In this document: positions 11,860 through 47,031 of the stretch, piece by piece
Layout of the letters: every line of letters starts with the position of its first letter
How positions within the stretch are numbered: the stretch's first letter is position 1
Source of the DNA: Candidatus Omnitrophota bacterium
GTDB lineage: Bacteria; Omnitrophota; Omnitrophia; Omnitrophales; Aquincolibacteriaceae
Direction: 5' to 3'
DNA: 64,000 bases
Assembly (NCBI GenBank): GCA_022711115.1
Contig: JAKLFP010000003.1
Location: forward strand, 201,199-265,198
Notes under the pieces: model-generated
Seen by the model: only the letters and a program-made list of their open reading frames with translations
Databases searched by the model: none
What the model was told of the DNA's origin: nothing
Position numbers and translations under genes: made by a program

Positions 11860-12147
11860 TCAGAATTTCGATTGAGCCACAACAAACATAACAGAGCTCA
11901 AAATTCCAAGCGCAGCGCCTAAAATCACTGTGTTGCGGACTTCACGCGGCTCATCGATCGGTGCGACTTGCCAATTAAACTGTTTCATGATCCACTGGTA
12001 TAAAGCTATGGATCGTTTTGGCCAAAAAATCGAAAGAACGCTAAGACCGATTCCCAAAAAACTGATCGCTAGGAAAATTATCTTAGGTGAAAAGCAACAG
12101 CACGCGAATTTACTGAGCGGACATTGCGTCATTTTGTTTCCTCCCAT
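11860..12147 (-). CDS. small hypothetical membrane protein
   Basis: Two hydrophobic segments are present. Coding is uncertain. Confidence 0.25.
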   Translation of the reverse strand: MGGNKMTQCPLSKFACCCFSPKIIFLAISFLGIGLSVLSIFWPKRSIALYQWIMKQFNWQVAPIDEPREVRNTVILGAALGILSSVMFVVAQSKF

Positions 12148-12163
12148 TCATGTTTCAAAATAA

Positions 12164-26193: not shown

Positions 26194-26751
26194 TTAAAAC
26201 TGAATCTTGACGTCCTGGGTATCTTCTTTCGGGATTTCCAAGAGAGTACGACGCTGATAGCCGAGCGAATTGGCGACAAACACATCCGGCAGCTGCTGAA
26301 TCCTGATGTTGTAAACATTAACGCTTTCGTTGAAGAATTCACGCCGATCCGCAATTTCGTTTTCAAGACCGGAAATACGGCCTTGTAATTGTAAAAAATT
26401 CTGGTTCGCTTTCAGGTCCGGATAATTTTCCGAAACAGCAAAAAGCGTTTTGAGTCCGGCGGCAAGCTGGTTTTCGGCCTTGGTTTTGTCTTCGATAGAG
26501 GTCGCGTTCATAAAAGCCGTCCGTGCCTGCGTGAGCTTCTCCAAAAGACCTTGTTCATATTGCATGTAGCCTTTGCAGGTATCGATCAGCTTCGGCAATT
26601 CATCATGCCGCTGCTTCAAAAGTACGTCGATATTGGCCCACGCCTTGTCGATATTGTTCCGAACCTGAATTAATCCGTTGTAAATCCCCACAAAATAACC
26701 GACCAGACCCATCACCGCAAAAATCACCACCGCAAGAATCACGAGGCTCAT
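26194..26751 (-). CDS. LemA family protein
   Basis: An N-terminal TM helix is followed by the LemA signature (IYNGLIQVRNNIDKAWANIDVLLKQRHDELPKLI). Confidence 0.85.
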   Translation of the reverse strand: MSLVILAVVIFAVMGLVGYFVGIYNGLIQVRNNIDKAWANIDVLLKQRHDELPKLIDTCKGYMQYEQGLLEKLTQARTAFMNATSIEDKTKAENQLAAGLKTLFAVSENYPDLKANQNFLQLQGRISGLENEIADRREFFNESVNVYNIRIQQLPDVFVANSLGYQRRTLLEIPKEDTQDVKIQF

Positions 26752-26787
26752 AAGAATTCTCCTTTTTCAGAGGGACTTTTCCCTTTT

Positions 26788-27561
26788 TTAAAAAATACTC
26801 GGAAAATACTGTTTGATTAAAATAAAAAGGCACACCACCGTAAGGATGGGGCCTCCGTACAAAAAAAGATACAACTGCCAGGTCATCGAATCCAGCAATT
26901 CTTTTTCGCTCTTGTCCGAAAGACAAAAAAAAGAACCTTCTTTCTGGATGCAAATATTCTCGCTGCTTTTTTCGGAAAGTTCCACGAGAGGGTTTTTTGT
27001 CGCGGTCCCCATGACATAAAGGTTGTCGCCGGGACAAACATAATGTTCCGTACAGCGGAGCGGCTTGTCAAAACCCATAAACCCGCGCGGCGATATCCCC
27101 AACTCGATCAACCCTTGTTCAAAAGCGGCTTTATCCGGACCACGGCTTAACGACCCCATATTAAACTTCCGGTCGTCCTTCAGATAAAGTTCGGCGCCCA
27201 CGGGATTCACCAAGGTCTTGCCCGTTTCATCCTCCAAATAAAACCATTCGGGCGTGCAAAACTCCTTGAGGGTTACCCAGTGGCTGCTTTTGCCAGAACT
27301 CCGTTTTTCTTCGACCTTATAATGAAAAAAAACGCAATCTGTTTTGGAAAAGGGCGTCTTCATCGTGCCTTTAAACGGCTTGGCAGTCCCGTTGATTTCT
27401 ACAAGCCCCATCGCCATCGCACGGATGGTGGAGGTCGGAATGTTTTCGATCAGTTTTCGTTTGTTGCGGATTTTGAATCCTCGAAAAAAGCCGATCACAC
27501 CACAAACGATACCTGCGAGCAGCCAAAATAAAAGGTCATTGTCAGAATTTCTAGTACTCAT
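26788..27561 (-). CDS. membrane-anchored protein, possibly GIDE-domain (LemA-associated)
   Basis: There is an N-terminal TM helix and a C-terminal TM helix. The position next to LemA matches the common bacterial LemA/GIDE pairing. The domain call is from memory only. Confidence 0.4.
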   Translation of the reverse strand: MSTRNSDNDLLFWLLAGIVCGVIGFFRGFKIRNKRKLIENIPTSTIRAMAMGLVEINGTAKPFKGTMKTPFSKTDCVFFHYKVEEKRSSGKSSHWVTLKEFCTPEWFYLEDETGKTLVNPVGAELYLKDDRKFNMGSLSRGPDKAAFEQGLIELGISPRGFMGFDKPLRCTEHYVCPGDNLYVMGTATKNPLVELSEKSSENICIQKEGSFFCLSDKSEKELLDSMTWQLYLFLYGGPILTVVCLFILIKQYFPSIF

Positions 27562-28012: not shown

Positions 28013-29086
28013 ATGAAAGATATTGTCCCGACTCGATACTGGCAAAAAGTAAACGACACTCATATCCAGTGCACCCTTTGCCCGCGCCATTGTAAATTGG
28101 CGGAAGGCCAGCGCGGTTTTTGTTTTGTGCGCGCCTGCCAGAATGGCCAGATCGTGCTTACCACCTACGGCCGCTCCAGCGGTTTTTGTGTGGATCCCAT
28201 CGAAAAAAAGCCTCTTTATCATTTCCTGCCGGGAACACCAATCCTTTCGTTCGGCACTGCGGGCTGCAACCTCGGCTGCCAATTCTGCCAGAACTGGGAT
28301 ATCAGCAAAGCGAATGAAACCGATGTCCTCGCAGATACCGCATCACCGGAAAAAATCGCCATGACGGCAAAAAACTTGAAATGCCGCAGTGTGGCCTTCA
28401 CCTATAATGAACCGCATGTTTTTCATGAATACGCCATTGACTCGGCCAAGGAATGTCGCAAACTCGGGATTAGAACCGTAGCCGTCACGGCTGGTTATGT
28501 TTGCAAGGAACCACGCATTGAATTCTACGAATGGATAGATGCGGCGAACGTGGATTTGAAAGCCTTCACGGATGATTTCTACCAAAAATATACGGCCAGT
28601 CATCTTGCGCCTGTTCTGGAAACTTTGCTCTATATTAAAAAAGAAACCAAGGTGTGGCTGGAAATCACAACGCTTCTGATCCCATCCCTGAATGATTCCG
28701 AAAAAGAGATTCACGCCATGACAAACTGGATCCTGGAAAATCTCGGACCTGACGTCCCGCTTCATTTCACGGCATTTCATCCGGCCTGGAAAGTGGACTT
28801 CCCGCCTACTCCGCTTGCAACGCTTCAAAAAGCCCGCGCGATCGCCCTGAAGAACGGCCTCCGCTATGTCTACACCGGCAATGTCGACAATCCCGAAGGC
28901 GAAACGACTTATTGTCATGCCTGCAATAAAAAATTGATCGGCCGGGATGGATTTGAAATCACGGATTGGAATTTAAAAGAGAACGGCGCCTGCAAATCCT
29001 GCGGGACAATGGGTTCGGGCATTTTGGAACCCCAGCCAGGCACCTGGGGCTCGAAGCGATTGCCGGTCAGAATGAAGGAAGATTGA
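28013..29086 (+). CDS. amrS: AmmeMemoRadiSam system radical SAM enzyme
   Basis: The N-terminal CxxC is CTLCPRHC, the radical SAM CxxxCxxC is CNLGCQFCQNW, and the C-terminal Cys-rich region is CHACN...CKSCG. Confidence 0.85.
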   Translation: MKDIVPTRYWQKVNDTHIQCTLCPRHCKLAEGQRGFCFVRACQNGQIVLTTYGRSSGFCVDPIEKKPLYHFLPGTPILSFGTAGCNLGCQFCQNWDISKANETDVLADTASPEKIAMTAKNLKCRSVAFTYNEPHVFHEYAIDSAKECRKLGIRTVAVTAGYVCKEPRIEFYEWIDAANVDLKAFTDDFYQKYTASHLAPVLETLLYIKKETKVWLEITTLLIPSLNDSEKEIHAMTNWILENLGPDVPLHFTAFHPAWKVDFPPTPLATLQKARAIALKNGLRYVYTGNVDNPEGETTYCHACNKKLIGRDGFEITDWNLKENGACKSCGTMGSGILEPQPGTWGSKRLPVRMKED

Positions 29087-29090
29087 AACG

Positions 29091-32000
29091 CTATTCGTTG
29101 GCCAAATAAAATTTGATGGCTCGCTCGAGCAGATAATGCAAAAGCACATCTTTATAAGAAAGCGACTCGTGATAAAAAGGTTTGATACTGACATCTTCTT
29201 TTTTTAGAAGCCGGCTGCTTAGTCGAAAAAATCTGATAGAACCATCGCCGGCATTGGGAATACGTTTGACACTATTTTGGGAACGCACTTGCTTTCTTGG
29301 GTCACTCGTTTGCGCCAACACATCCTGCAGAGTATTTTGCTCAGAAGTGATTTCAGATTGTTTGGCTAACGGCTGACTTTCGGTTTGAGAACCGGCGATC
29401 ATGGTTGCCGCGAGTCCTATCACACCGGCGGGAACGGTGCGGTCATAATAGGAAAAATTGTCCTGAATCTGGCTCCAAGCAAAATTCAAAAGCCCATAGC
29501 CGATGCCCCAAGGGTTAAATAATGAAAAAATTTGAGTCACGGAATTGTAGTTGACCAACGCATAAGTATGACTAGGAACGACGCCGCTTCCGGAGACAGG
29601 ATTGCTTTTGGCCGTGAAGGTGAGGAGCGTATTCGGAGTGTTCCACGAATTCACGACCACGTTCCATTGGCTCGGATCCGGCAACCAGCCTGTTGTAACC
29701 GCATTTCCGGAAATAGCCTCGAGCGCATATGAGGAACTTCCCCATCCGATCGCGCGGTAACTATTCGAGTTTTTACCCCACTTTTCATGGATCTGGACAA
29801 ACGCCTTCTCGGCAAGAGCTGCCCATAATTCGGCATTATAATCGTAGGCAAAAGCACCGCGATTGGCGTATACAAAAACCCACGACGGTTCAACCGGCAC
29901 CTGACGATCCACGGTGACATAATCTGCAATACCCTCCTTAAAAAATCGTACGGTATAAGTTCCGTCACCGTTATCGATGAACATATCTGCGATGACATCC
30001 GGAGTCCGGCGAGCCGTTTCCGCAAGAGCGGCCAGAAAATAGCAGTCTGATGTAGCCCCCTGCACAATATCGGAATAACTGATCCCATTGACAAAAAGAC
30101 GTCCCACAGCAGCTCCACGATAGCTGCCGTCTTCCGCAACCGGACGGTCGAGTCCTAGAAACCATTTATTCACAAGCTTTTGAAGTTGCGCGGCCGAAGA
30201 TCCGGGCATTAAATTCCCCAAGGCCGTCTCCTGATAAACAGCATTAGCCTGGTTCCCAAGAATAACGGCATTCGCGAGGACATGAACATAATCAAGTTCT
30301 TTATAAAAAGCAGGACGATTTTGCATCTCCTGCAAGAGTGAAAATTCCACTGCCGAAACAAGACCTTCATCCTGAACCGCGTTTAAAATGGACAACAGAT
30401 CAGCCCGATTCAAAATGCCGTCGGATAAATCCGCCTGAATCAAAGAAGCCAAAGCAGTATCCGGACTCACGGTATAGTTGGACCCGTTTACTCTAAAATA
30501 AATCGTTTGGCCATTGAGTTGCGTGATTTGGATTCGGGTCATCAAGGCAAAGGTCTGTATATCGCTGGCCCAGGTACGGAACGTGTCCATGATCCCGTCA
30601 AAGAGCAGTTTTGCATTGATGGCCGTGCCGGTGCGATAATCGGCCGTTAGGGTCGTGAAATCGGGAACCGCATTCGGTGAAATATCAAAAGAAAGCTGAC
30701 TCAGCGTACCCATCAGAAAACCACTCCCCGTTACGGTAATTTGACATCTTGGAGGCACACTTCCGCTGATATAGGCCGCGCTCACTATTGTCCCAGCACT
30801 CAAGGCCGCTTGAAACTGAGCCACGTAATTTTTAACTTGAGGAGACGGTTGCTGCTCGAGATGAACGCCAGTAGCGTCACGATAGGCCTTGTAGTAGGAG
30901 TTCTCCAGTCTAAAGTATGTCGTTTGATCCTCATCTTTGCCCGTAATCATGAGCTGCATCATCGCGTAAAGTGTCTGAATATCGTTCAGTTTTGAGATCG
31001 GCGACATTTTCAAAGCCTGGAATAACATGCTCGCAGGAACTGTGATGTCAGCCGCCGAACCTTTATAGTTAGCCCGAATCGAACCTGCCACCAATTGACC
31101 GTTCGGCGAAAGATTGAAGAACAGATCCTTGAAGGAACCTTGCATGTTCGGCCAGGGGTCATAAACATGCACTTCATATTCAGGATTGGCGCAAAGAGAG
31201 CAAAAAGATATTTGTGTTTCATAGTTATATGTAAAGAGAGCTTGCAATTGAGTCACATAATTCTGAACCGCGGTTCTGAAGGCTTGATACGATTGATTTT
31301 GATAATTGAAATAAATCACACCGTTGACAATAGAAGTCACATTCAATTGCGTCAAGGCCACAAGGGATGCGACATCATTTTTAAGAAAAGGCGATTGATG
31401 GAATGTGAGAAAAAGCAGATTCGAATCGATGCCAGCAATACCCTGATAACTTACCTGAAGGGTCGGAATATCGAGCGTTCCATTCTGTTTAATTACAAAT
31501 TCCATCCGGTTCAAGGCACCGGTCGCTGCGGCAGCATTGGTCACAATGACTTTATAGCCGGAGGTCCTGTAAACGTAGTGAAACGTCAAACTTCCGATGC
31601 TGTTTTTAAACGAAGAGAGTGTGGCCACAACAGGTGCCGGAATATCCATATCGGTTGATTGTTTGATAAGATCAACAAGATAACTTGTCCGGACCGACAT
31701 CGGATCTGTCCACACAAGCCATGAAGGTGAAGATACGGAAGTAATGTTCGCTGTGATGCTGCCGCTGGCCGAATCAACAACGATCCGGGTGATCTGAGAT
31801 CTCCAATTCCCTCCCTGACAATTGATATCACTACAGGTGGTCCGCCAGATGGAAGAAAGAACATAACCTGCCGCATAATTAAATTGGGCCTGCGTACCGG
31901 TCTTCAAATCCACCACTTGTTTGATGTTGTATTGACCACCATAAGTCATTATGACGATCTTGCCCACATCCATCAAAACACCATTTCGGGTTTCAGATAT

Positions 32001-32354
32001 AAATGCATTGATCTCATTGGAGTTCTGGGGATTCACAGAGACTCGGATATTCAACGGCACGCCGTTTGTACCATAATATTTTTGCAAGGCCGGCATCACC
32101 TGTGATGTGAGATTATCCATGGGTGTTGCCACACTAAGCGGTCCAAAAGGCACAAGGCTTCCGGAGGGAATCGATGTCTGCGTTGAAGTTTGTGAAGAAG
32201 TAGAGTTCGTTTGCGTTCCTTCAAAAGTCTGTGTGGGCATACTTTGGGCAAGCGGGTCCTTCTGCGTAGTTGGGGCCAAAAGTGCAAACCCCGTCGGCAT
32301 TATTTGGGTACTCACTAACAGGAAAGCCATTAGAACTGCTAAAGATTTTTTCAT
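29091..32354 (-). CDS. large secreted protein with C-terminal calpain-like cysteine protease (peptidase C2) domain; N-terminal region paralogous to a segment of the adjacent 2462-aa protein
   Basis: The signal peptide is MKKSLAVLMAFLLVSTQIMPTGFA. The calpain triad context is QGATSDCYFLAALA (Cys codon 30042-30044), SHTYALV (His) and FNPWG (Asn codon 29514-29516). The protein is 1087 aa. Confidence 0.8.
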   Translation of the reverse strand: MKKSLAVLMAFLLVSTQIMPTGFALLAPTTQKDPLAQSMPTQTFEGTQTNSTSSQTSTQTSIPSGSLVPFGPLSVATPMDNLTSQVMPALQKYYGTNGVPLNIRVSVNPQNSNEINAFISETRNGVLMDVGKIVIMTYGGQYNIKQVVDLKTGTQAQFNYAAGYVLSSIWRTTCSDINCQGGNWRSQITRIVVDSASGSITANITSVSSPSWLVWTDPMSVRTSYLVDLIKQSTDMDIPAPVVATLSSFKNSIGSLTFHYVYRTSGYKVIVTNAAAATGALNRMEFVIKQNGTLDIPTLQVSYQGIAGIDSNLLFLTFHQSPFLKNDVASLVALTQLNVTSIVNGVIYFNYQNQSYQAFRTAVQNYVTQLQALFTYNYETQISFCSLCANPEYEVHVYDPWPNMQGSFKDLFFNLSPNGQLVAGSIRANYKGSAADITVPASMLFQALKMSPISKLNDIQTLYAMMQLMITGKDEDQTTYFRLENSYYKAYRDATGVHLEQQPSPQVKNYVAQFQAALSAGTIVSAAYISGSVPPRCQITVTGSGFLMGTLSQLSFDISPNAVPDFTTLTADYRTGTAINAKLLFDGIMDTFRTWASDIQTFALMTRIQITQLNGQTIYFRVNGSNYTVSPDTALASLIQADLSDGILNRADLLSILNAVQDEGLVSAVEFSLLQEMQNRPAFYKELDYVHVLANAVILGNQANAVYQETALGNLMPGSSAAQLQKLVNKWFLGLDRPVAEDGSYRGAAVGRLFVNGISYSDIVQGATSDCYFLAALAETARRTPDVIADMFIDNGDGTYTVRFFKEGIADYVTVDRQVPVEPSWVFVYANRGAFAYDYNAELWAALAEKAFVQIHEKWGKNSNSYRAIGWGSSSYALEAISGNAVTTGWLPDPSQWNVVVNSWNTPNTLLTFTAKSNPVSGSGVVPSHTYALVNYNSVTQIFSLFNPWGIGYGLLNFAWSQIQDNFSYYDRTVPAGVIGLAATMIAGSQTESQPLAKQSEITSEQNTLQDVLAQTSDPRKQVRSQNSVKRIPNAGDGSIRFFRLSSRLLKKEDVSIKPFYHESLSYKDVLLHYLLERAIKFYLANE
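31274..32093. repeat. paralogous segment (copy 1) shared between the two giant genes, about 80% DNA identity with 36507..37326
   Basis: The encoded peptide LQKYYGTNGVPLNIRVSVNPQNSNEINAFISE...GKIVIMTYGGQYNIKQVVDLKTGTQAQFNYAAGYVLSSIWRTTCSDINC is nearly identical to the copy in the 2462-aa gene. Antisense ORFs 31884..32105 and 37117..37302 mirror each other. Boundaries are approximate. Confidence 0.75.
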
Positions 32355-32682
32355 TCTAAAGCCTCCGATAAAATTTATAAATCTCGATCAAATTTCTCTA
32401 CATTAAAGAGTTTTATTTTGTGTTAAAAAAGTTAAAACCATTTTAACTTTCTTTCGCTAAAAGATAGCATTTCTCTCATTAATGTCAAAAATGCGTTTAT
32501 GGAAGATTCTTCTTGCTATGAATTGATTTTTGGTATTTTAAGGAGTAACTTTTACAAAATTCTAAGAGGAAATCTTTAAACCAAAACGTGGAATTGTGAA
32601 TCAAAATAATCCATTGGCAGGATGAAGGTCTTTGATTAAAAACACCTGGTTCATACAACTAATGTTTGTGTCGTGATCCTTT

Positions 32683-35600
32683 TCAGACTGTAGCAGAAAG
32701 CAACGACCCCATAAGAACCCACACACCATTTATAAGCTGATACCAATTACTGTTATAGTAGATCCATTGCCCTGCCGGTTCAGAAAAAGCCGTATAGGAA
32801 ATCCCGTTATATCTAAAAACGATATCAAAACCCTGAATATTCGCCCCAGACCGAGACCTTGTGTTGGAAGTGCTCGATAAGTATTCAAAACTTTTGGCCC
32901 GAAGTGATAACTGCATCATTAAAAATTGTTCCGCACTTTCCAGGGGCTGCATCACTTCCGCTTCTGCCTCAGCATAGGTATAAAATGTTCCGGTCCTCGG
33001 ATTTATCACATCCCGGATCGCACCCGTCACCAGTTTCGATGCCAACCCATGAAAGCTGCTATCCGGAATCCGGTCCACAAGCCACTGCTGTCGATTGATA
33101 TCATGCTTATTGAAATTTAAAAGCCGCATCCAGTTCGCTGTCACCTGGTGTGCCCGCCATTCCATATGCGCTGCATCATCAACGACATCGATCGAGTGTT
33201 TCATTTCATGTGCCAGGATCGGTAAGGCAAGACGAGCTGAGGCAGCGCCTTGCGTTCCGCTGAGCGCCGTTAAATCACAGTAAAAGATAAGCACTTTATC
33301 AACAGTCGCTTGGATTGCAACACCCATCCCTGAAAAAATCCAACTAGCACTCGCTGAAGCATAAAAAGGATGTTCCTGCAATTGTCTTAAGACCAGATGA
33401 TACGGACTGCGTAAATAAGTGAGAAACGTCGCACTGTCTGTCTGCATGCCCAAGGCAATCATTTGTCTCATGGCGTTTCTCGCTTGGGCGTTGATCCCCT
33501 CCGCCACGAAGGTTTCATAGGTCGTCGTGACAAAATAGCTGGCCGGTTGTATCGAGCGAAAACTATTTTGAATATTGGTATACAGTTCCCTCGAAAAATT
33601 CTGCCGGCTTAGCAGCACATCCACAAAAAGCTGTCCCGATGAGTTGTAATAATCTGTGGTGTCCCCGTTCGCGTAGGTCCGCTTCGAATAATCCGGTGTG
33701 GTGTTGGTGCCCGTATAGCAATACTGCTGGGTCCATGCTGGCGTGCCGTTTGCGGCATATTGTGTCCTGACACTTAATCTCCCGAAAACGTCATTTTGAA
33801 CAACCGAGATCTGGGAACCCGCCGGCGCGGCAACGTCCACATCCACCAGCTTAGTCTGGCCGTTCCAATGCAAGCTGATCCTCACAACCGACCCACCCGG
33901 CAGCTGGATGCTTTCATATCCGACAAACCGGAAATTCTGGATCCCGGTACCAAAAATTTGCGCCACAATCTGTGGATTACCTGAGAGAATGCTGAAGGCC
34001 GCAGCTGTTTTTTCCTGCCTCGCAATTATGTCAGGCGATGCTCCGAGAACTCTGACGGCTTGAAAGGTTGCGGCATAGGCGTTCGCTTCCGAAACAAGAA
34101 TCGCTACATTAGGGTCTGCCGCTACATCAACCGAATGGGTTGCTTCATGAGCCACTCTCGGCACTATCCAGTTTCTTCGAGTCATGGAGTCTTGAGGAAG
34201 CGCAAGAAAAGGCTCGAGGGGCATTACAACGATATCGTAAGCTTCCGACGACATTGCGAATTGACTCAAAGCTTCGGGAGTGAGATTGATCCCTTTTAAG
34301 AACAGCACGGGAAACGAAGCTCCTGCCGGGAGAATGTGATTAACCGGATCCGTCATAAAAGCATAGGCTTGCGCCACAAGGTCCAAGTTTTGAGCGGTTG
34401 CCTGCACAGATTCCAGGAACTGCGCGGCAGTGATCTGTGTAAGAGGATCCTCCTGCCGCAACCCCGCAAACAAAGCGTCATAAGGAAGATACGTGCCCTG
34501 CAGGTTCACGATCCATTGGCCATTGTAATAGATCAATCCGCCGGAGAGATCGGAAAAAATATTTTGAAAAATATTTTGATTGGTACCGCTGTAAGAAAAA
34601 ACCATGTCATACCCGTTGTTCATTATTCCAAAATGATCTCTGTTTGCAGACGAGCTTGAGATGAACTGCAAAGAATTCATGCCCATACTCGCCAAATAAA
34701 GAATGGCGCTAGATTGATAAGGCGGTAAAAATTGAGAAAAAACAACACTTCGCAACCGACGTTCATTCCATTCGGTATTGTAAGTCGCCATTGCATTCGC
34801 AAGATCTTGGCTGGCAGAATTCAATTGGGCCAAGAGCGCCTGGAGTTCTGCCTCGCTCTTATAATTCAAATCACCGATGATCATCATCTGTGGATTTCGA
34901 GCGCTAAGCCCTAACATCTGAGCTCTTTGCATTTCAATTGATTCGAAATTAACCACTTGATCAAATTGATTCTGCGCGAGGCATTTCCAGTTCCAAATCA
35001 TTTTTTTCAGAGTATTGTAGGTTAGCAGGGTGTCTGCCTGCATGGGCGGCTCGATCACTGTACCGAAAACCTGAACTTTTGCGGCAGCAAAAGTCGCCCC
35101 TATCGCATTGATTTCCTGACTGAAAACAGAAAAATCCTGCGCTCTTCGGGCATTAAATTCTGTGGATTGGGTTATAAGAGATTGGATGACAGACTGAACA
35201 TTGTTGATCAAGGACATTTGGATATTTACCGAATGCCATGACGAGTCAACAAAAACCCAAAAACTCGTATCGGAAATTGCATGAACAAAAACAGTCTTAT
35301 GCCCGCCTCCTGGAAGCTGGAAGGTAAGTTCGCGCCCTGTAAGAATGACTGAATCCTTTGTCATAGACGCAACACGACTCGACTCAAAGACCATTTTCGT
35401 AATGCCCGATGCAAGAAGATTCAGTTGCGCGGCCCAAACAAGCCGGATGGCTCTTTCCCGTGAAATACCGTTCGCGAAATAATAATTTTGGACCAGAGTT
35501 CCTTCCGTGGATCCATCACCGGCAACATCGATCATATATTTTTCTTCGTTGATGGAGACTTGCGGGCTACCTAACATCTCCATCCATCTTACGGTTTCCG

Positions 35601-38600
35601 CTCTCGCATATTTTTCCGACGCCACCATCGGAGAATTGCAAATGCCTTTAACCCCGCAGTAAACATGCGCCATTTCATGCGCCATAAAGCTAGCCATTCC
35701 TCCCTTGGTGTTATCATTAAGTAAGGGGACAGAACCCAAATCAAGCGTAACGGTTGCCGTGGCAGCGACGCCATATCCGCCGCCGACATGAGGGGAACTG
35801 GGATTCGTCAAAATAATGAAATGGCGAAGCGTACTTAAAAGCTGCCCGAACCTTGCCGCATCTCGGTTCATTGCATACGCTATGAGATCTGTTAGGAAAT
35901 TCCGTTCAGAAGTTGTAGGCGCATGCGCGATAAACTCAGCGTAAGTCATGTTGCCAAAACTTTCTCGAATATAAGGAAATGCATTTTTTGTATTATTAAA
36001 TTCGATTTCCGTCATGGTCGTCCGATCCAGAAGCGCATCGACAAAACGCTGGCCGGCAGAATTATAATAATCGATATCGCCATTCGCATAAGTCCGCTTG
36101 GAATAATCCGGCGTGATGTTCGCGCCGGTGTAGTAATACTGCTGCGTCCATAAAAGCGTCCGGTTATCATATTGAGTCATCAGAGCTAAACGACCGATGG
36201 AATCATATCGTTTGATCGTCGCCTGAGAACCACTGACAAGCCATTGATACCACACGCCGTTGTAATAGATCCATTGACCGGATAGATCTGAAAAAGCATT
36301 GTAGAGAGTACTGCCGCGTCTGAAGACGATATTGTAGCCCTGAACACTTGTCCCAAAGCGGGAGGCCGTCGTGGAAGTGCTTGAAATATATTCAAAGCTA
36401 TTGGGGGCAAAGCTGAACTGGGTCATAAGAAATTGCTCCGCGCTATCCAGCGGCACTGACGGAAGAAGATAAATCTGTGTGGACGGTGCCGGGGCTTTAA
36501 AAATCACATAGGAAAGAGTTTGATACACAAATTTGATAGAACCGCTGGAGCCCGCCTGAACGTTACTGATTCGTGGCAACATGGTCAGCGCAGCCACATC
36601 ACTAATGCCGGGTTGTAAAAGTTTCATGCCCTCGAATAACAATGAACCGTTTGGCGTTAGATTTGTTGTCGCGCCTTTATAAGTCAACTGAAGAGTCGTT
36701 AAGTCGATGGTTCCATTCCGCCTGACCACAAATTCCATCCGGCTTAAGCCACCGACAATCGCGGTTGGATTGGTGACAATAACTTTATAACCTCCGGTGA
36801 CATAGAAATAATGAAATGTCAAACTGCCGATATTGTTCTTAAATGAGGAGAGTGTGGCCGCAACAGGTACGGGAATGTCCATGTCTGTTGATTTTTTGAT
36901 AAGATCCGCAAAACTGGTGAAACTCACGGACGTTGCATCTGTCCATACAAGGAATGTAGGCGACGAAACTGAAGTAACAGTCGCAGTGCCACTGCTGGTC
37001 GAAGAATCAAGGGTGGTAACACTGATCTGTGATTTCCAATACCCTCCTCGACAATTGATATCACTGCAGGTCGTTCGCCAGATAGAAGAAAGGACATAGC
37101 CTGCCGCGTAATTGAATTGAGCCTGCGTGCCAGTCTTGAGATCCACAACGCGGCTGATGTTATACTGGCCACCATAGGTCATGATCACGATCTTCCCCAC
37201 ATCTTTCATGACGCCATTCTGGAGTTCGGATATAAATACATTGATCTCGTTAGAGTTTTGAGGATTCACAGAAACACGGATATTCGCCGGCAACCCGCTT
37301 AGCCCATAATATTTCTGCAACGTCTGCATCAAGGGCGTTTCATCCTGATACGTCACAATCGTACCATTGCGATAGATCTTATAAAACTTCCCCTGCCACC
37401 CAAGATGAATAGCTCCTGTCGGTTCCACGCTGTAAATCGTACTTTGAGTGAGGCGGATAAGTGCATCTCGATCCGCAGTAATGGCTGGAGTTAAAAGTTT
37501 GATCGCGGAAAACAATAATTGCTGATCCAAAGATGTGATATCCTGATAGCTGATACTTTGGATGGCGTCCAGACTTCCATTGGCAAGCAGTGAAAAAGAT
37601 GCGGATACAAAGGTCCCTCTCGGATGAGTGTTGTTATTGATAATCTCGGTAAGAAGTTTGCCAGCACCCGTGTCATAACGCAAACTGACCTTCAAACCAC
37701 TAGGAAGCATGGATTGTAACGTGATGGCATTCTGTAAACTGTAAGCAGCTGTTTGAAGGATTTTGTTTGTTTTTGCATTGGTATGCCAAACAATTGCCGC
37801 ATCCATGCTTTGAGCAATCGAAGTCAATTGCTGTTGGGTTTGGAGAAGTTCAGTTCGCGTGGCAAAATAAACATTGGTCATAAACTGTGCGGCCTGCTGC
37901 AACACGTAACCATCAAGGCCCAATTCATTGGCTCGCTGGACCTCGGCGATGCTGAATTCGACCACGCTGTCATATGCATTAGTCAGCATCTTTTTCCCGT
38001 TCCACAAAATCTTCAGAATTGTGGTAAACGATAGAAGAAGATCGGGATCCGTCGGCGGAGTAACAATAGTCCCGTTAATTGTTAATACAGCACTTGCAAA
38101 TGTGGAGCCCGACACATCGATCGGTCCGAAAAGAGCGGTAAAAGTTTGATTTAAAAGGGTCGTGATCGTATTGGCTTTTGTTGCGAGCTGTTGCTGCAAG
38201 GCTTCGATCGAGGTTATTAATTCGAAATTATTATAAAAATCATGCCAGGTGCCGTCAAAGAGTGAAATAGTTTCATTGGAAGTACCAGGATTGATGATAT
38301 TCGAAACAAAAATGGTAGCGGTCTGAAATTCAACCGTATGACCAGTAACCGTGCCAGAACCACGTGTCATAGATCCCGCGGTCACCGAGACCAGTTGCGG
38401 GACTACTTTGGAATCGCTCGTCTGCTGCGCTACTTGGTAGATTCTGGCAATTTCTTCGGGCGAGCGCATGAAGAGCGCGCTTTCATTAAAAACAACCTGC
38501 CTTCCGGAATAAAATGTCTCAGCAAAAAGCGGCCCTGTGATAACTTCTTGCCAATGAGATCCGTTCAAATAAATTTGGCTATTCCAGGGATCGATCCACC

Positions 38601-40071
38601 AATATCTTCCGAAAGCAGGTCGATCGCCGCCCATCCAATAACGCATGTTATCTAGTGGTATCTCGCCGAAATTATAATAAACCCGAGAACTTACTGTTGA
38701 TGTGCCCGGAATTAAAAAAGTTTGATAAGCATAACCGGAGAGATTGCTTTGACCATACTCGGGAATAAAATGATACGAATCATTGCCTCCGAAGATTTCC
38801 GCCCAGCCAGCATGTTCTTTGATCCAATTGATGGCGTTGATTTCTCGCCACTCCGTATATTGCTCATTATGCCCAAAGCCTGCTTGCCCGAATTCGCCGG
38901 GAACATCGAGAGGATCAATCCCATAAAGAGAATCTGTCTCGCCGCCAATAGCATGATATCCTTCATGAAGAATGATCCCTATCACACCGGAACGACCAGC
39001 GCCCAAAGTTTGATCCGGTTTAAACATACGAGCCCCTAAGGAGATTTGCGCGCTTGCCCAACCCATGCTGGAATACCAAAACCTTGTAGAACCACAAACA
39101 GGCCTGACGTAATCGGCGCTTATCACGTGAACAGTCTGTTTAAATTTATTCCAGAAATCAGCTGCAAAATGCCTGAGAGATGTTAATACATCCAATATGA
39201 CTTGAGTGGTGCTGGCTAAGAAACCACTGATATACCCGAAAATCATGGATCGGTAATGTTCCGTCCATTCTGCATACCATTCGTCTCGAGTGATATCACG
39301 CTCCGCCTGACTGTACATTAGATTTGGCTCATTGGGCTGACTAAGCGTTCCATCGCCAGGAGATAGGTCATACGCTTCTCCTGCACTTTGATCGAAAATC
39401 GCACTGCCCTGTTCATCCCGATAAACCATGTAGCGTTGATTATTTTGTTCGTAATAAATAACTCCTTTTTCATTGACTGTTTCAATTTTGATTTCAGTAA
39501 GCTTACTTAGCGCATTTTGAACATTGATATCATTTTGCGTTGATTCGCTCATTCCCTTAAAAATCAGATCGCCGTCGACATTCTCCACACCGGAATAAAC
39601 AGTTTCTTTGACTTCGCTGAATGTTCCGTCTGCTTTTAAACTAACCTTCATGAATTTGAATTTGCCATTTCCTTGAACATCTGAAAGGTTGTGAACTACA
39701 ACAAAATACTCATTCGCTTCCGGATCGTACCGGGTTTCAATGGAATAGCTTTTCCCAAGGTTCTTTTGAAGCTGATCCACCAAAGCCTTCGCGGTAACAG
39801 GTAATTCAGGTTGAAGTTTATCTTCCGGCATTGCGGGTGAAATCGGACTCGGCTCTTGAAGGCTTCCGGAGGGAAGTTCCGGTGCAGATTTATCCGGCAA
39901 CACGGTACTGGATAGGGCATCTACAGTTTTAGTTTGCTGGCTTCTTGGATCTGAAAGTGTAATGGGTTCATCCGCATAGACCGGAGACAGAGGGGTGACG
40001 GAAAAAAAGCACATCAAAATACTCAGGTATAAAGATATCCCCTTAGTGCACAGCCTCATGTTAAATTTCAC
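32683..40071 (-). CDS. giant secreted multi-module protein (2462 aa) with four HExxH zincin-like motifs, YD-repeat-like segments and a triplicated beta-rich module
   Basis: The signal peptide ends ...PLSPVYA. A Pro-rich linker follows. The HExxH motifs are HEGYH (codons about 38953-38967), HEMAH, HEATH and HEMKH. The YD-like segments are YDSIGRLALMTQYDNRTL...PDYSKRTYANGD and a second copy. The three copies of the SFEY..SSTS..QG..IVF..AFS..GQWIYYN module are detailed in the findings. Confidence 0.8.
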   Translation of the reverse strand: MKFNMRLCTKGISLYLSILMCFFSVTPLSPVYADEPITLSDPRSQQTKTVDALSSTVLPDKSAPELPSGSLQEPSPISPAMPEDKLQPELPVTAKALVDQLQKNLGKSYSIETRYDPEANEYFVVVHNLSDVQGNGKFKFMKVSLKADGTFSEVKETVYSGVENVDGDLIFKGMSESTQNDINVQNALSKLTEIKIETVNEKGVIYYEQNNQRYMVYRDEQGSAIFDQSAGEAYDLSPGDGTLSQPNEPNLMYSQAERDITRDEWYAEWTEHYRSMIFGYISGFLASTTQVILDVLTSLRHFAADFWNKFKQTVHVISADYVRPVCGSTRFWYSSMGWASAQISLGARMFKPDQTLGAGRSGVIGIILHEGYHAIGGETDSLYGIDPLDVPGEFGQAGFGHNEQYTEWREINAINWIKEHAGWAEIFGGNDSYHFIPEYGQSNLSGYAYQTFLIPGTSTVSSRVYYNFGEIPLDNMRYWMGGDRPAFGRYWWIDPWNSQIYLNGSHWQEVITGPLFAETFYSGRQVVFNESALFMRSPEEIARIYQVAQQTSDSKVVPQLVSVTAGSMTRGSGTVTGHTVEFQTATIFVSNIINPGTSNETISLFDGTWHDFYNNFELITSIEALQQQLATKANTITTLLNQTFTALFGPIDVSGSTFASAVLTINGTIVTPPTDPDLLLSFTTILKILWNGKKMLTNAYDSVVEFSIAEVQRANELGLDGYVLQQAAQFMTNVYFATRTELLQTQQQLTSIAQSMDAAIVWHTNAKTNKILQTAAYSLQNAITLQSMLPSGLKVSLRYDTGAGKLLTEIINNNTHPRGTFVSASFSLLANGSLDAIQSISYQDITSLDQQLLFSAIKLLTPAITADRDALIRLTQSTIYSVEPTGAIHLGWQGKFYKIYRNGTIVTYQDETPLMQTLQKYYGLSGLPANIRVSVNPQNSNEINVFISELQNGVMKDVGKIVIMTYGGQYNISRVVDLKTGTQAQFNYAAGYVLSSIWRTTCSDINCRGGYWKSQISVTTLDSSTSSGTATVTSVSSPTFLVWTDATSVSFTSFADLIKKSTDMDIPVPVAATLSSFKNNIGSLTFHYFYVTGGYKVIVTNPTAIVGGLSRMEFVVRRNGTIDLTTLQLTYKGATTNLTPNGSLLFEGMKLLQPGISDVAALTMLPRISNVQAGSSGSIKFVYQTLSYVIFKAPAPSTQIYLLPSVPLDSAEQFLMTQFSFAPNSFEYISSTSTTASRFGTSVQGYNIVFRRGSTLYNAFSDLSGQWIYYNGVWYQWLVSGSQATIKRYDSIGRLALMTQYDNRTLLWTQQYYYTGANITPDYSKRTYANGDIDYYNSAGQRFVDALLDRTTMTEIEFNNTKNAFPYIRESFGNMTYAEFIAHAPTTSERNFLTDLIAYAMNRDAARFGQLLSTLRHFIILTNPSSPHVGGGYGVAATATVTLDLGSVPLLNDNTKGGMASFMAHEMAHVYCGVKGICNSPMVASEKYARAETVRWMEMLGSPQVSINEEKYMIDVAGDGSTEGTLVQNYYFANGISRERAIRLVWAAQLNLLASGITKMVFESSRVASMTKDSVILTGRELTFQLPGGGHKTVFVHAISDTSFWVFVDSSWHSVNIQMSLINNVQSVIQSLITQSTEFNARRAQDFSVFSQEINAIGATFAAAKVQVFGTVIEPPMQADTLLTYNTLKKMIWNWKCLAQNQFDQVVNFESIEMQRAQMLGLSARNPQMMIIGDLNYKSEAELQALLAQLNSASQDLANAMATYNTEWNERRLRSVVFSQFLPPYQSSAILYLASMGMNSLQFISSSSANRDHFGIMNNGYDMVFSYSGTNQNIFQNIFSDLSGGLIYYNGQWIVNLQGTYLPYDALFAGLRQEDPLTQITAAQFLESVQATAQNLDLVAQAYAFMTDPVNHILPAGASFPVLFLKGINLTPEALSQFAMSSEAYDIVVMPLEPFLALPQDSMTRRNWIVPRVAHEATHSVDVAADPNVAILVSEANAYAATFQAVRVLGASPDIIARQEKTAAAFSILSGNPQIVAQIFGTGIQNFRFVGYESIQLPGGSVVRISLHWNGQTKLVDVDVAAPAGSQISVVQNDVFGRLSVRTQYAANGTPAWTQQYCYTGTNTTPDYSKRTYANGDTTDYYNSSGQLFVDVLLSRQNFSRELYTNIQNSFRSIQPASYFVTTTYETFVAEGINAQARNAMRQMIALGMQTDSATFLTYLRSPYHLVLRQLQEHPFYASASASWIFSGMGVAIQATVDKVLIFYCDLTALSGTQGAASARLALPILAHEMKHSIDVVDDAAHMEWRAHQVTANWMRLLNFNKHDINRQQWLVDRIPDSSFHGLASKLVTGAIRDVINPRTGTFYTYAEAEAEVMQPLESAEQFLMMQLSLRAKSFEYLSSTSNTRSRSGANIQGFDIVFRYNGISYTAFSEPAGQWIYYNSNWYQLINGVWVLMGSLLSATV
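36507..37326. repeat. paralogous segment (copy 2) inside the 2462-aa gene, homologous to 31274..32093
   Basis: See copy 1. The coordinates were derived from the 5233-bp offset between mirrored antisense ORFs and are approximate. Confidence 0.75.
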
Positions 40072-44290: not shown

Positions 44291-44866
44291 AATCTGAAAG
44301 GAAATGAAAATGAAGCTTTGTGGGTTGTATCAATAATGCTGTTGTCTTAATCATTCATGCCGTTATTATTTTCCTGTATCGTTTTTTAGCACGAGATTTA
44401 TTCCATGCCGTTTCTAAAATCGCTCAGCATTTCACGTTTAAAAGAATCCACCCCTTTCATCCCTGTGACCCTCCCAGCTTCGCTGCCCAGGGTTCTTCTT
44501 TAACCGTTTCCGCAATCGCCAGCACCACCTAACCAAACATAAAAAGCTCGATTAGACACAGCCAAACTATTTTTATGCAGTTTTCCTTAGTGAATAAATT
44601 TGAATTTAAGACGTTTATAGAATGGGATGGGCTATTTGTACCGCTTTTGAATGTATCAAAAAAATTATCGCCTGAGGCCTTATAAATTTCAAGATATATG
44701 ATCAAAATTGCTATAAGGATACTTTTTAAAATGTATGAAAGACTTTTTTTGCTATAAAATGGATCTTGAATCTGAATTGATACTTGTCTAAACTTAGTAG
44801 TAGGAACAAGGGGCATGAGACCCCGGAGGCAAGACGATGAAAAAAGCAAAGTTCTTGATAAAAAAA

Positions 44867-45283
44867 ATGAATGATTCCAGAAAAAAATTTCCTAACCAAC
44901 AAACAGGCTTTACCCTTATAGAGGTCATGCTTGCTTTACTTATCATGGCCGTTGCGATCGGCAGCTACGTGGGGACCAATATGCTTATCCAACGGAACGC
45001 GGAAGTTCAGTTTGAACGCAGTATTGCCGTCCAAGACGCCAACAGGGTCATTGAGAGAATGCGGAATGCCGCCATCAGTGGAATATTTCCCGGTAATGTT
45101 GTGGCGGCATTCCCGAATGGCGGTTTTGTCCTCGGATTCACAAACCTGACCAGTGAGGTCGTGAATGTTCATTATACCTCGACAACTTCCGACCCGCTGG
45201 ATGCAACGGTAACTGTGAATTGGCAGTCCCATACCGGGCGAGGTTCAACTTTAGCATTGAGATCCATGCTAACACAGAGGTGA
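44867..45283 (+). CDS. prepilin-type N-terminal cleavage/methylation domain protein (minor pilin/pseudopilin-like)
   Basis: GFTLIEVMLALLIMAVAIGSY is the class III signal-peptide motif G|FTLIE. The start was chosen at the internal Met (MNDSRKK) of ORF 44837..45283. Confidence 0.65.
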   Translation: MNDSRKKFPNQQTGFTLIEVMLALLIMAVAIGSYVGTNMLIQRNAEVQFERSIAVQDANRVIERMRNAAISGIFPGNVVAAFPNGGFVLGFTNLTSEVVNVHYTSTTSDPLDATVTVNWQSHTGRGSTLALRSMLTQR

Positions 45284-45288
45284 CAGGC

Positions 45289-45843
45289 ATGTTAAAACGA
45301 CTAGGGAAAAAGCATCGCGGCTTTACGATCATTGAACTTGTTCTTGTGGCGTTTTTATCATCGTTCATCATCCTTGGCTCTTTCGCAGCCTTCACCGTCG
45401 GCAATGAACAAGCCCAACTGAGCCAAACTAAAATGACTCTTGAAAGTTCTGCGCGGGACGCACTTTATAAAATGGCGCAGGAGATACGCCAGTCGGCGCC
45501 GAGCAGGATCACGATTGCTGCTGGCGGAGCCAGCATCCTGTTTGCGGTACCCGATCCGGCCAATCTCATCACAGCAACTTACGGCGTTAATTGGGCGGGT
45601 TGTCACATGATTCGTTATGCTCTCGGAGGCGTTAATAACCGACAACTCATCCGAACGGATGTATCGGCAAATCAATCATCCGTTATCGCAAACGATATCA
45701 CAGCCCTTCAGTTTGCAATGGGTGTTTCTCAAATTCGCGTTATTTCTATAACACTCTCGACCCAACGGACGCTGATCAGCGGACGTCCGGTCCCGGACAC
45801 TCCCCTGCAGCTGACGGCACAAGTGGAGGTACGCAACACATGA
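45289..45843 (+). CDS. prepilin-type N-terminal domain protein (minor pilin-like)
   Basis: The motif is RGFTIIELVLVAFLSSFIILG. The start was chosen at MLKRLGKK, internal to ORF 45220..45843. Confidence 0.65.
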   Translation: MLKRLGKKHRGFTIIELVLVAFLSSFIILGSFAAFTVGNEQAQLSQTKMTLESSARDALYKMAQEIRQSAPSRITIAAGGASILFAVPDPANLITATYGVNWAGCHMIRYALGGVNNRQLIRTDVSANQSSVIANDITALQFAMGVSQIRVISITLSTQRTLISGRPVPDTPLQLTAQVEVRNT

Positions 45844-47027
45844 AAAAATTTCCAAGAGCAAGAGCTCAACGAGGGTTTATTCTTGTTTCTGTTTATCTGG
45901 TCATTACAGGTCTTTCGATCGCGTCGGTGGCCTATTTCGCCAGAAGCAACGCCTTTCTGCAATCTGCCGAACGTGACCGAAACAGACTGATTGCTTTTAA
46001 TATGGCTGAAACGGCCGTCGATGTTGCTCTCACTCAGCTGAACATGAATAAAAGCTACACGGGAACCAACGGCTATGTTCCGTTTGACACGACTTCGGTG
46101 CCCGGAGGTTATTCGGTGGTAGTCACCACGCCCAACGGCAACCCGAGTATCCGAGTGATTCAAGCTTCAGGATTTGCTCCGGATAATACTGCAACATCCC
46201 GTGCCGCCCAAAGCGCAAACATTATCGCGTATGCCGAGATCCAGCCAAATCCTCTTTTTAATTTTGCGGTCTTTGCAAAAGATTCCATCAGCTTGACCAG
46301 CAGCGGCAGTGTTGCAAGCGTGGATAGTTACAACTCAACCAATGGCGCCTACAATCCTGCTACTGCCGGGAGTAATGGGCACATCGCTGCAAATTCCATT
46401 ACCCTCGACACGATTTCCCTTTCTGGAAATACTTTGGTTAAAGGAGACGCCTTTGTCGGTCCTGGAGGGGATCCTGACATGGGAATTAAGATTGGTCCGA
46501 ATTCGAGCATCACAGGCACCAAATCGGTATTACCCGCACCCATTGTTTATCAGCCTATCACTACAACGCTTCCGGTTTCCGGTGCAATCAGCATCAGCGG
46601 AAATACTGTGCAAAATCTGCTTCCGGGCACTTATCATTTTTCGTCTATCAGTATTACCGGACAGGCTTTGCTCAATATTACGGGGGCCGTAAAGATTTAC
46701 GTGGACGGTCCAGTGGACATCAGCGGACAAGGCATTGCCACCGCGGGCAATCTTCCGACTAATTTTCTTCTTTATGCCAGTGGAACCGACACGGTAAAAA
46801 TTAACGGCCAAGGAAACCTTTATGCAGGCATCTATGCCCCCAATGCGGTGGTAGAAAACGTTGGAAACGCCGCCTTTCTCGGCGCGGCAATCGCCAGTGA
46901 TTACAAACAGACCGGCAATAGCACCATCCACTTTGATGAAGCGCTCATGACGGTACAGAACGATGAGTTCGCTAAGATGAAAGTCAAGTCATGGCAGGAA
47001 TTGAACAGCTTGACTTGGGGGACTTAA
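45840..47027 (+). CDS. PilX-like N-terminal domain protein with Gly/Asn/Thr-rich beta-helix-like repeats (putative pilus tip/adhesin), paralog 1
   Basis: The N-terminal segment is QRGFILVSVYLVITGLSIASVAYF. The repetitive segment is G-N-T...I-x-G. The last 11 aa are identical to paralog 2. Confidence 0.5.
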   Translation: MKKFPRARAQRGFILVSVYLVITGLSIASVAYFARSNAFLQSAERDRNRLIAFNMAETAVDVALTQLNMNKSYTGTNGYVPFDTTSVPGGYSVVVTTPNGNPSIRVIQASGFAPDNTATSRAAQSANIIAYAEIQPNPLFNFAVFAKDSISLTSSGSVASVDSYNSTNGAYNPATAGSNGHIAANSITLDTISLSGNTLVKGDAFVGPGGDPDMGIKIGPNSSITGTKSVLPAPIVYQPITTTLPVSGAISISGNTVQNLLPGTYHFSSISITGQALLNITGAVKIYVDGPVDISGQGIATAGNLPTNFLLYASGTDTVKINGQGNLYAGIYAPNAVVENVGNAAFLGAAIASDYKQTGNSTIHFDEALMTVQNDEFAKMKVKSWQELNSLTWGT

Positions 47028-47031
47028 TCCA

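Follow-up and report, generated by a model that had tools for sequence, protein, structure and literature searches.

The window analyzed here, a 64,000-nucleotide stretch of contig JAKLFP010000003.1 from an uncultivated member of Candidatus Omnitrophota, carries on its minus strand two long open reading frames (ORFs) in the same orientation, which we term CalpA (1087 aa) and BigB (2462 aa). An initial annotation made from the letters of the window had described tandem, co-oriented genes of these lengths, and the ORFs lie exactly at 29091 to 32354 and 32683 to 40071. On balance, we regard CalpA and BigB as old paralogues in a small, Omnitrophota-restricted family of Sec-exported mosaic proteins that are probably extracellular or surface exposed and putatively proteolytic; the restriction to Omnitrophota is based on source names. 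Both proteins would be built on a common chassis, composed of a signal peptide, a low-complexity linker with a PSGSL-type motif, a constrained core of ∼105 aa, and copies of a ∼130-aa repeat (X). The hydrolytic parts on this chassis would differ, with one calpain domain in CalpA versus three HExxH...E units and a doubtful fourth in BigB.

Shared segment and exchange of catalytic parts

CalpA residues 86 to 360 match BigB residues 914 to 1192 with 63% identity over 279 aa (BLASTP E value, 1e-103) and 67% identity at the DNA level. The initial annotation had called this segment nearly identical in protein and about 80% identical in DNA, a description that fits the first ∼95 codons (84% protein identity, with 93 to 97% in 30-codon windows, and 80% DNA identity) but not the segment as a whole. 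Over the last ∼60 codons, protein identity drops to 17 to 50%, and third-codon-position identity is only 50 to 60% along the entire segment. Synonymous (dS) and nonsynonymous (dN) divergence, calculated by the Nei-Gojobori method, amounted to 1.07 and 0.10 in the core and to ∼1.03 and 0.19 to 0.28 for aa 181 to 300. Because dS is ∼1.07 against a dN of 0.10 and third positions are 50 to 60% identical, the two copies derive from an old duplication, and the core is under strong purifying selection. A recent duplication or gene conversion as the origin of the segment is ruled out by the same values.

The segment consists of two parts: a unique, constrained N-terminal core of ∼105 to 150 aa and a C-terminal stretch of ∼130 aa that is one X repeat. 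The initial annotation had treated the segment as one shared module; its second half belongs to an ordinary repeat with three internal copies per protein. The X repeat is lineage specific (3 copies in CalpA and 3 in BigB) and also occurs in relatives P0005, P0006, P0008, P0013, and P0024. Within the core (consensus ...GK[IV]VIMTYGGQY.I..VVDLKTGTQAQFNY..GYVLSSIWRT.CSD[IV].C.GG.W[RK]SQ...), a run of ∼55 residues is nearly fully invariant in an alignment of four proteins from at least three genomes. Core and X are complete in CalpA, BigB, P0002, and P0003 and more divergent in P0006 and P0008; a metagenome fragment (L006) covers the segment only in part. Neither the shared segment, the X repeat, nor the other noncalpain parts gave a Pfam or NCBIfam profile match to Ig-like, cadherin-like, or other adhesin repeats; the initial annotation had named a common adhesin repeat as the finding that would undo its proposal, and none was encountered. 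Judged by these profile searches, neither the shared core nor the X repeat corresponds to a described domain, and both lack a match in the domain libraries.

Relatives at the same genomic position carry different catalytic parts. P0002 (1450 aa) lies beside orthologous radical S-adenosylmethionine (radical-SAM) and Na:Ala symporter genes (82% and 89% identical, respectively), i.e., at the CalpA position. Its residues align with CalpA 1 to 365 at 52% identity and are followed by three HExxH units instead of the X repeats and calpain domain. Since P0002 shares this N-terminal portion and position with CalpA and has HExxH units versus calpain, positional orthologues have exchanged their catalytic parts while retaining the same N-terminal chassis. 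The initially proposed shared module with swapped catalytic domains is borne out by this exchange and by the constraint on the module.

P0003 (1259 aa) follows the orthologous CYTH gene, which is the BigB position; it has the shared module directly behind its leader and matches BigB residues 1854 to 2443 at 47% identity. The next gene is ORF6N-like rather than a second family member, and the contig stops before the radical-SAM position. The stretch between the CYTH and radical-SAM genes thus appears variable. The tandem pair itself was not seen in these two related loci, the P0002 contig stopping ∼500 bp upstream, so that a neighbor may lie beyond its end. A third paralogue is encoded in the same metagenome-assembled genome (MAG; prefix PLO78): P0006 (PLO78_07395; 2359 aa; gene L011:10001-17080) contains a divergent shared module and five units and adjoins a divergent large serine recombinase and a DUF2924 gene (L011:7737-17080). 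At locus L005, an ORF6N/KilA-N-like gene comes directly after the family gene. These surroundings hint that family genes reside in mobile or variable regions. No neighboring gene is conserved across the family loci, and thus no dedicated secretion, immunity, or maturation partner was seen.

The family is sparsely represented in sequence databases. In word-indexed searches, CalpA and BigB each retrieved, besides the entry identical to the query, no more than one or two homologues; the BigB query missed P0002 and P0003, and a query with the unit alignment gave no match. Exhaustive HMMER searching recovered the family. The shared module had no match in 185,579 GTDB species representatives, none in viral contigs, and a single fragment in JGI metagenomes (the L006 fragment). 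Source names, where given, are Candidatus Omnitrophota. The pattern of a short linker found in BigB, described below as YD-like, matched one 4.3-kb contig (JAGVFE010000039.1; L014:13-2949) of a Candidatus Woesebacteria (candidate phyla radiation) MAG, which encodes P0007, a three-unit member. This contig is probably a binning error; alternatively, the family is not confined to Omnitrophota. Signal peptides are present on most of the closest members, and several of the more distant members are very long and anchored in the membrane.

Two short motifs were observed in addition. The first, [VIL]P[SP][GD]S[LV]x[EP]xxP[ILA]S, recurs with little variation in position, ∼60 aa from the N terminus and 30 to 40 aa past the predicted signal peptide cut (CalpA aa 63 to 69, window 32148-32168; BigB aa 67 to 73, window 39853-39873; P0006 aa 59; P0013 aa 63; P0024 aa 63), in proteins that differ in downstream architecture. 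This PSGSL-type motif could be a processing, sorting, or modification site. The second, PLFGFE(E/K)(S/A)..(F/Y)..(I/L)L.ELT(Q/E), preceded by a basic stretch, is shared by the C termini of P0005 (aa 2022 to 2044) and P0006 (aa 2338 to 2359); none of 500 shuffles scored as well, and it may be a sorting signal. A kinship of the CalpA tail with this C terminus was rejected, as 224 of 500 shuffles scored as high.

Calpain domain and HExxH units

CalpA is composed of a signal peptide, a Ser/Thr-rich linker, the conserved shared module, three X repeats, a precalpain region, the calpain domain, and a 125-aa tail. Residues 752 to 962 match Peptidase_C2 (PF00648) with an E value of 2.1e-20 and 73.4 bits (cutoff, 23.8), and phmmer matched CalpA to 19 calpain sequences in the PDB (best E value, 1.4e-7). 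The CalpA segments QGATSDC771YFLAA (QGATSDCYFLAA), SH929TYAL, and FN947PWG are in register with QGALGDCWLLAA, GHAYSV, and RNPWG of 1kfu/1zcm. Cys771, His929, and Asn947 thereby align onto the catalytic residues of m- and mu-calpain, and the triad is intact. The initial annotation had seen a calpain-type Cys/His/Asn core at the end of the protein; the core is real, but the 125-aa tail follows it.

By sequence, CalpA is a new member of a known peptidase family, C2, and already carries that name from the Prokaryotic Genome Annotation Pipeline (PGAP). Bacterial homologues of calpain are known to be secreted, to lack Ca sites, and to show diverse architectures and a patchy distribution (Rawlings 2015, PMC4631099). 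Like these proteins (MEROPS C2, e.g., Tpr of Porphyromonas gingivalis), CalpA combines a C2 domain and triad with a signal peptide, has no EF-hand or C2-like domain, and shows an unusual lineage-specific architecture and patchy distribution. Unlike them, it has an N-terminal portion of 630 aa (core plus three X repeats) and a 125-aa tail that match no described domain, and it is paired with, and shares the chassis of, a multi-HExxH protein.

Self-comparison resolved BigB into the following order: signal peptide, X, HEGYH region, helical region, X, shared core with X, small domain, YD-like linker, unit 2, helical region, small domain, unit 3 with a variant small domain, YD-like linker, unit 4, and small domain. 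No part of BigB matched Pfam over cutoff, so that Peptidase_C2 in CalpA was the only such match among the modules of the two proteins. The YD-like stretches (YDSIGRL...WTQQYYYTG.N.TPDYSKRTY) form one or two hairpins per linker, and the initial label of YD-repeat-like is fair for these two short stretches, although the Pfam RHS/YD models did not match them. Two further candidate identities were rejected. For a PepSY- or propeptide-like nature, considered for the small domain as well as for the beginning of the shared module, there was no Pfam match up to an E value of 5; PepSY and FTP were likewise absent from 26 unit-plus-small-domain sequences at E values up to 5 and from isolated pieces, and Foldseek with the fold returned only insignificant cystatin- and NTF2-like matches (E value above 0.4). 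An MpAFP Ig-repeat match (E value, 3e-6) arose by adding up four identical matches of 31 residues, whose individual E values were ∼10, and was treated as a beta-hairpin coincidence.

Four HExxH motifs are present in BigB (aa 369, 1465, 1975, and 2288), in agreement with the four modules counted initially. Three of them lie in homologous units; by profile comparison, the tally is three secure units and one doubtful. The unit spans ∼190 aa, is usually followed by a small helix-plus-sheet domain, and occurs two to five times per protein in tandem arrays. BigB units 2 to 4 share homology among themselves and with the units of P0002 and P0003, which have three apiece (17 to 35% identical), and the H, E, H, and a Glu located 12 to 20 residues downstream are invariant among all of these units.

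When 1.84 billion representative proteins were searched exhaustively by HMMER with the unit profile (E value up to 1e-3), only 30 were found to carry the unit. The initial annotation had allowed that both genes might belong to a widespread annotated family; CalpA is already a C2 protease at NCBI. Across 46 unit copies from ∼30 divergent proteins, the motif residues are conserved in 44 (H), 45 (E), and 44 (H) copies and the downstream Glu in all 46; the D of DHIPDNNY.G is kept in 39. All four residues of H-E-H...E are invariant in a 26-sequence alignment with a mean column identity of 24%. The unit also has its own conserved flanks, LLDR..I(T/S)..EF upstream and DHIPDNNY.G downstream. Degenerate motifs were found in four copies, RELAH in P0006 (aa 1652 to 1946) and P0011 (aa 36 to 338), HDMAY in P0007 (aa 634 to 925), and HEAGA in P0009 (aa 1332 to 1607), each of which still keeps the downstream Glu. 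These copies may be pseudo-enzymes inside otherwise intact arrays, as loss of a motif in a few copies also happens in tandemly duplicated enzyme domains.

An HExxH motif followed by a helix with a Glu is the classical gluzincin peptidase signature. The conservation of H-E-H...E points to a gluzincin-type metal or catalytic site, in which the Glu would serve as a ligand. Profile comparisons gave only weak leads. In Pfam, DUF6782 was matched below threshold by three members (E values, 0.006 to 0.015), Peptidase_M91 by two (14.7 bits), and SprT-like by one (12.3 bits); NCBIfam yielded no match to the units. A profile search of PDB sequences returned BepA/M48 (E values, 0.6 to 0.8) and acutolysin (E value, 0.83), none significant. 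The recurring weak Pfam and PDB matches were to zincins only. Aligned by hhalign to an alignment of four Escherichia coli M48 proteases, the unit scored 44% probability over 40 columns covering the strand before HExxH and the HExxH helix.

In structure prediction, the AlphaFold2 model of unit 4 (8 sequences; predicted local distance difference test [pLDDT], 67) is confident from the HExxH helix on and not in the upstream half. Its confident part comprises helices H111-133, H140-153, and H158-170, with the conserved Glu on H140-153, and the small domain was modeled as a helix plus six-stranded sheet (pLDDT, >90). The two structure models obtained are too weak to confirm a zincin fold. The initial term zincin-like therefore stands at the level of the invariant H-E-H...E signature but not as membership in a zincin family, for which no significant match was found.

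Compact gluzincins (M48/M56 proteins such as BepA, HtpX, and LoiP; minigluzincins), SprT-like proteins, Peptidase_M91 (NleD), and DUF6782 are related to the unit through subthreshold profile matches only. As in compact gluzincins, the HExxH helix of the unit follows hydrophobic strands, the Glu is on the next helix 12 to 20 residues on, and the whole measures ∼150 to 190 aa. In contrast to them, the unit has its own conserved flanks, tandem arrays, and a trailing small domain, and the similarity falls short of significance. Weighing the signature against these comparisons, we think it probable that the BigB units are zinc metallopeptidases. We interpret the unit as a candidate new zinc metallopeptidase module that is gluzincin-like at the motif level and fits no existing family.

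The same data bear on a different explanation, namely, that CalpA and BigB are surface adhesins or scaffolds in which the HExxH units are other metal-dependent hydrolases or binding modules and the calpain domain serves only self-processing or maturation. The bulk of both proteins is indeed X repeats, helical repeats, and small beta-rich domains, the unit has neither a significant link to a peptidase family nor a confirmed zincin fold, the motif is lost in some copies, and nonpeptidase homologues of calpain exist (PMC4631099). The near invariance of H, E, H, and Glu in copies that are 16 to 28% identical is nevertheless difficult to account for unless a metal or catalytic site is present, these residues form an established gluzincin signature, and the CalpA triad is intact. 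We therefore rate an adhesin or scaffold function as improbable.

Export, role of the scaffold, and comparison with known systems

We consider it highly probable, from the look of their N termini, that both proteins are exported across the inner membrane; they would then act outside the cytoplasm, at the surface or beyond. Secretion-type leaders are present on CalpA, on BigB, and on most close relatives. Both leaders, judged by eye, consist of an n-region, a hydrophobic region, and a small-residue cleavage motif, consistent with the signal peptides noted initially; by the same inspection, neither the CalpA nor the BigB leader has a lipobox. A GGAGG lies 7 nt 5′ of the CalpA ATG. In the mechanism we favor, Sec would carry both proteins over the inner membrane, and the core and X repeats would form a noncatalytic scaffold for binding or anchoring, either on the cell's own envelope or on a target surface. 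Extracellular protein degradation would be the task of the catalytic parts, plausibly at the surface of prey or hosts. Substrates would thus be proteins of other cells or of the environment, in keeping with the predatory, epibiotic, or otherwise host-dependent lifestyle proposed for the phylum. Long secreted Omnitrophota proteins have been discussed as predation-linked or cell-envelope-degrading effectors (10.1101/2023.11.21.568195; 10.64898/2026.06.07.730766).

Several points weigh against this account. The leaders were judged by eye only, so secretion of both proteins is a prediction, and no outer membrane export route was identified at the locus. The first HExxH motif of BigB (aa 369) is only marginal against the 46-copy unit profile and not convincingly in the unit family, and the units show no significant similarity to any peptidase family (all Pfam matches under cutoff; PDB profile E values of at least 0.6). 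A cluster of four pilin-like genes nearby has no demonstrated link to CalpA or BigB. Finally, the most conserved part of the shared module yielded no model, so that the binding or anchoring role is pure inference; we put the scaffold function forward as a tentative idea, somewhat short of even odds.

The placement of the shared module invites another role, that of an N-terminal prodomain, which would act as an intramolecular chaperone or inhibitor to hold the proteases in a latent state and would be cleaved off once export is complete. The module occupies the usual place of a propeptide, at or near the N terminus, in CalpA, P0002, P0003, and probably P0008 (N-terminally truncated), and in the complete proteins CalpA, P0002, and P0003, it comes directly behind signal peptide and linker. 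Its first ∼75 residues were modeled, at low confidence, as a helix plus antiparallel sheet, which is common in propeptides and inhibitors. Yet the module is internal in BigB (aa 907 to 1196, with ∼900 aa upstream) and P0006 (aa 740 to 1025, with ∼740 aa upstream), one nearly invariant module would have to regulate a cysteine protease and a metalloprotease alike, and no PepSY, FTP, or inhibitor_I-type Pfam match appeared at any threshold. Because of the internal position and the two catalytic classes, a prodomain role is unlikely, and we assign it a low probability.

The exchange of catalytic parts between CalpA and P0002 also recalls polymorphic toxin systems (Rhs/YD, CDI, and MafB), reportedly described by Zhang, Aravind, and co-workers in 2012, a likeness drawn in the initial annotation. 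Under such a model, the shared module would be a trafficking domain that delivers interchangeable protease warheads into a competitor or prey, as in Rhs, CDI, or MAFB-type systems. The conserved N-terminal chassis with variable C-terminal enzymatic parts in these positional orthologues would fit, as would the short YD-like hairpins, the mobile-element genes beside family genes at two other loci (serine recombinase with DUF2924; ORF6N-like), and the weak Pfam matches to effector-type zincins (Peptidase_M91). Against it, no small immunity-type ORF follows either gene: the convergent radical-SAM gene lies 4 bp beyond CalpA, and the 328-bp spacer has no ORF. Nor is a neighboring gene conserved across loci, and searches of Pfam and NCBIfam detected no known trafficking, pretoxin, or Rhs-core domain. 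The catalytic units stand as internal repeats in midprotein tandem arrays instead of forming one C-terminal tip, BigB and P0006 have the shared module in an internal position, and Sec leaders take the place of signals for T5, T6, or T7 secretion. With no immunity gene, no recognized trafficking domain, and no Rhs shell, CalpA and BigB lack, as far as their sequences tell, the defining features of a polymorphic toxin system; the likeness is supported only by the pattern of a chassis with exchanged warheads, and we hold this explanation to be quite improbable.

The giant proteins of Omnitrophota (Archaeovorins and dockerin-type proteins; 10.1101/2023.11.21.568195, 10.64898/2026.06.07.730766) come from the same phylum and are likewise secreted or membrane mosaics with peptidases that are discussed as predation factors. 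CalpA and BigB differ in being 10 to 50 times smaller, the giants being defined by >10,000 aa, and in having no dockerin, glycosyl hydrolase/transferase, C39, or S8 domains and no transmembrane helices. Neither of these two papers mentions calpain or HExxH modules. A more ambitious combination, in which a new Omnitrophota zinc-peptidase family in arrays, the core together with the PSGSL-type motif as a new surface-targeting or second-step export signal, and locus-swapped warheads against host surface layers all hold jointly, is in our view unlikely.

Locus organization and significance

Coordinates of the features are collected in Table 1. Public gene calls begin slightly inside the ORFs (1079 aa for CalpA and 2458 aa for BigB), and the 1087-aa form of CalpA is also at NCBI. 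The spacer upstream of BigB is 218 bp. A promoter and terminator scan gave the same site counts as in shuffled sequence and no terminator-like site after BigB. No rRNA, tRNA, or Rfam family was found at the locus or in the window, and a six-frame search of the whole window with three family profiles detected no further family copies.

Table 1. Features of the CalpA and BigB genes, in window coordinates
Feature	Window positions	Strand	Description
Gene A, CalpA	29091..32354	-	1087 aa; identical to NCBI HOW59220.1, "C2 family cysteine protease," Candidatus Omnitrophota MAG
CalpA predicted Sec signal peptide	32283..32354	-	aa 1-24, MKKSLAVLMAFLLVSTQIMPTGFA, cut MKKSLAVLMAFLLVSTQIMPTGFA/LL; judged by eye
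CalpA copy of shared segment	31275..32099	-	aa 86-360: core aa 86-190 (window 31785-32099) and first X repeat aa 238-362
CalpA X repeats 2 and 3	30459..31268	-	aa 361-494 and 504-633
CalpA Peptidase_C2 (calpain) catalytic domain	29469..30101	-	aa 752-962; Cys771, His929, Asn947
CalpA C-terminal tail	29094..29468	-	aa 963-1087; no match to anything
CalpA/BigB intergenic spacer	32355..32682	-	328 bp, AT-rich; one sigma-70-like site (32488-32461), no terminator-like site
Gene B, BigB	32683..40071	-	2462 aa, or 2458 aa from ATG at 40059; identical to NCBI "hypothetical protein PLO78_05775," Candidatus Omnitrophota MAG
BigB predicted Sec signal peptide	39970..40059	-	aa 5-34, MRLCTKGISLYLSILMCFFSVTPLSPVYA, cut MRLCTKGISLYLSILMCFFSVTPLSPVYA/DE; judged by eye
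BigB X repeat a	39412..39804	-	aa 90-220
BigB first HExxH region	38464..39282	-	HEGYH aa 369-373 (window 38953-38967); divergent or unrelated zincin-like stretch
BigB helical region 1	37738..38463	-	aa 537-778; repeated at aa 1537-1779 (window 34735-35463), ∼29% identity
BigB X repeat b	37366..37735	-	aa 779-903
BigB copy of shared segment	36484..37353	-	aa 907-1196: core and X repeat c aa 1066-1194
BigB small helix-plus-sheet domain, copy 1	36244..36453	-	aa 1207-1276, FEYISSTS...DLSGQWIYYNGVWYQ
BigB YD-like linker 1	36037..36234	-	aa 1280-1345; second copy aa 2092-2152 (window 33616-33798)
BigB HExxH unit 2	35464..36036	-	aa 1346-1536; HEMAH aa 1465-1469 (window 35665-35679), Glu downstream
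BigB small helix-plus-sheet domain, copy 2	34504..34728	-	aa 1782-1856
BigB HExxH unit 3 and variant small domain	33799..34461	-	aa 1871-2091; HEATH aa 1975-1979 (window 34135-34149)
BigB HExxH unit 4 and small domain, copy 3	32728..33615	-	aa 2153-2448; HEMKH aa 2288-2292 (window 33196-33210); AlphaFold2-modeled unit

The surroundings are ordinary chromosomal genes. On the BigB upstream side are CYTH, a DUF748/AsmA-like gene, PTPase, and an Na+/H+ exchanger. The AsmA-like neighbor would fit a diderm envelope. Downstream of CalpA, the convergent radical-SAM gene, which belongs to the AmmeMemoRadiSam set and ends 4 bp from the CalpA stop codon, is followed by DUF4186, GIDE, LemA, and Na:Ala symporter genes. 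The AmmeMemoRadiSam trio is present but split, with AMMECR1 (18656-19207, minus strand) and Memo (19255-20079, minus strand) together and the radical-SAM gene (28013-29086, plus strand) ∼8 kb off. The LemA and GIDE-domain (E3-ligase-like, membrane) gene pair (26194-27561, minus strand) is missing from an otherwise syntenic relative (L003).

Other observations concern more distant parts of the window. The four pilin-like genes lie ∼5 kb upstream of BigB (44837-48222, plus strand); two have an N-terminal methylation motif and two have DUF7305, and one of the DUF7305 genes also carries a putative ice-binding-like adhesive domain. ORFs of 301, 309, and 576 aa (10980-13767 and 16304-18034, minus strand) had no Pfam match, a 225-aa ORF in the same stretches falling outside that test. 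An 819-aa fusion of a pyridine-nucleotide-disulfide oxidoreductase with rhodanese, TusA, and DsrE-like domains (1439-3898, plus strand) represents an all-in-one sulfur-transfer architecture.

Omnitrophota are abundant, uncultivated, and very small. They are suspected to live on other cells, and next to nothing is known of the molecules at their cell-cell interface. To this picture, the locus adds a rare example of a predicted secreted bacterial calpain; a candidate zinc-peptidase module that is not represented in Pfam, in NCBIfam, or among PDB sequences and is repeated within proteins; and a highly constrained domain common to otherwise different secreted proteins, whose catalytic parts are exchanged at one genomic position. 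As a whole, the locus encodes putative secreted mosaic proteases, uncharacterized but not categorically strange, that include what may be a new peptidase family as well as a conserved domain that is new. If the units are peptidases, they would constitute a new peptidase family, and if the core binds a defined partner, it would offer a handle on attachment to, or export onto, targets. Otherwise, CalpA, BigB, and their relatives would represent a lineage-specific set of mosaic exoproteins.

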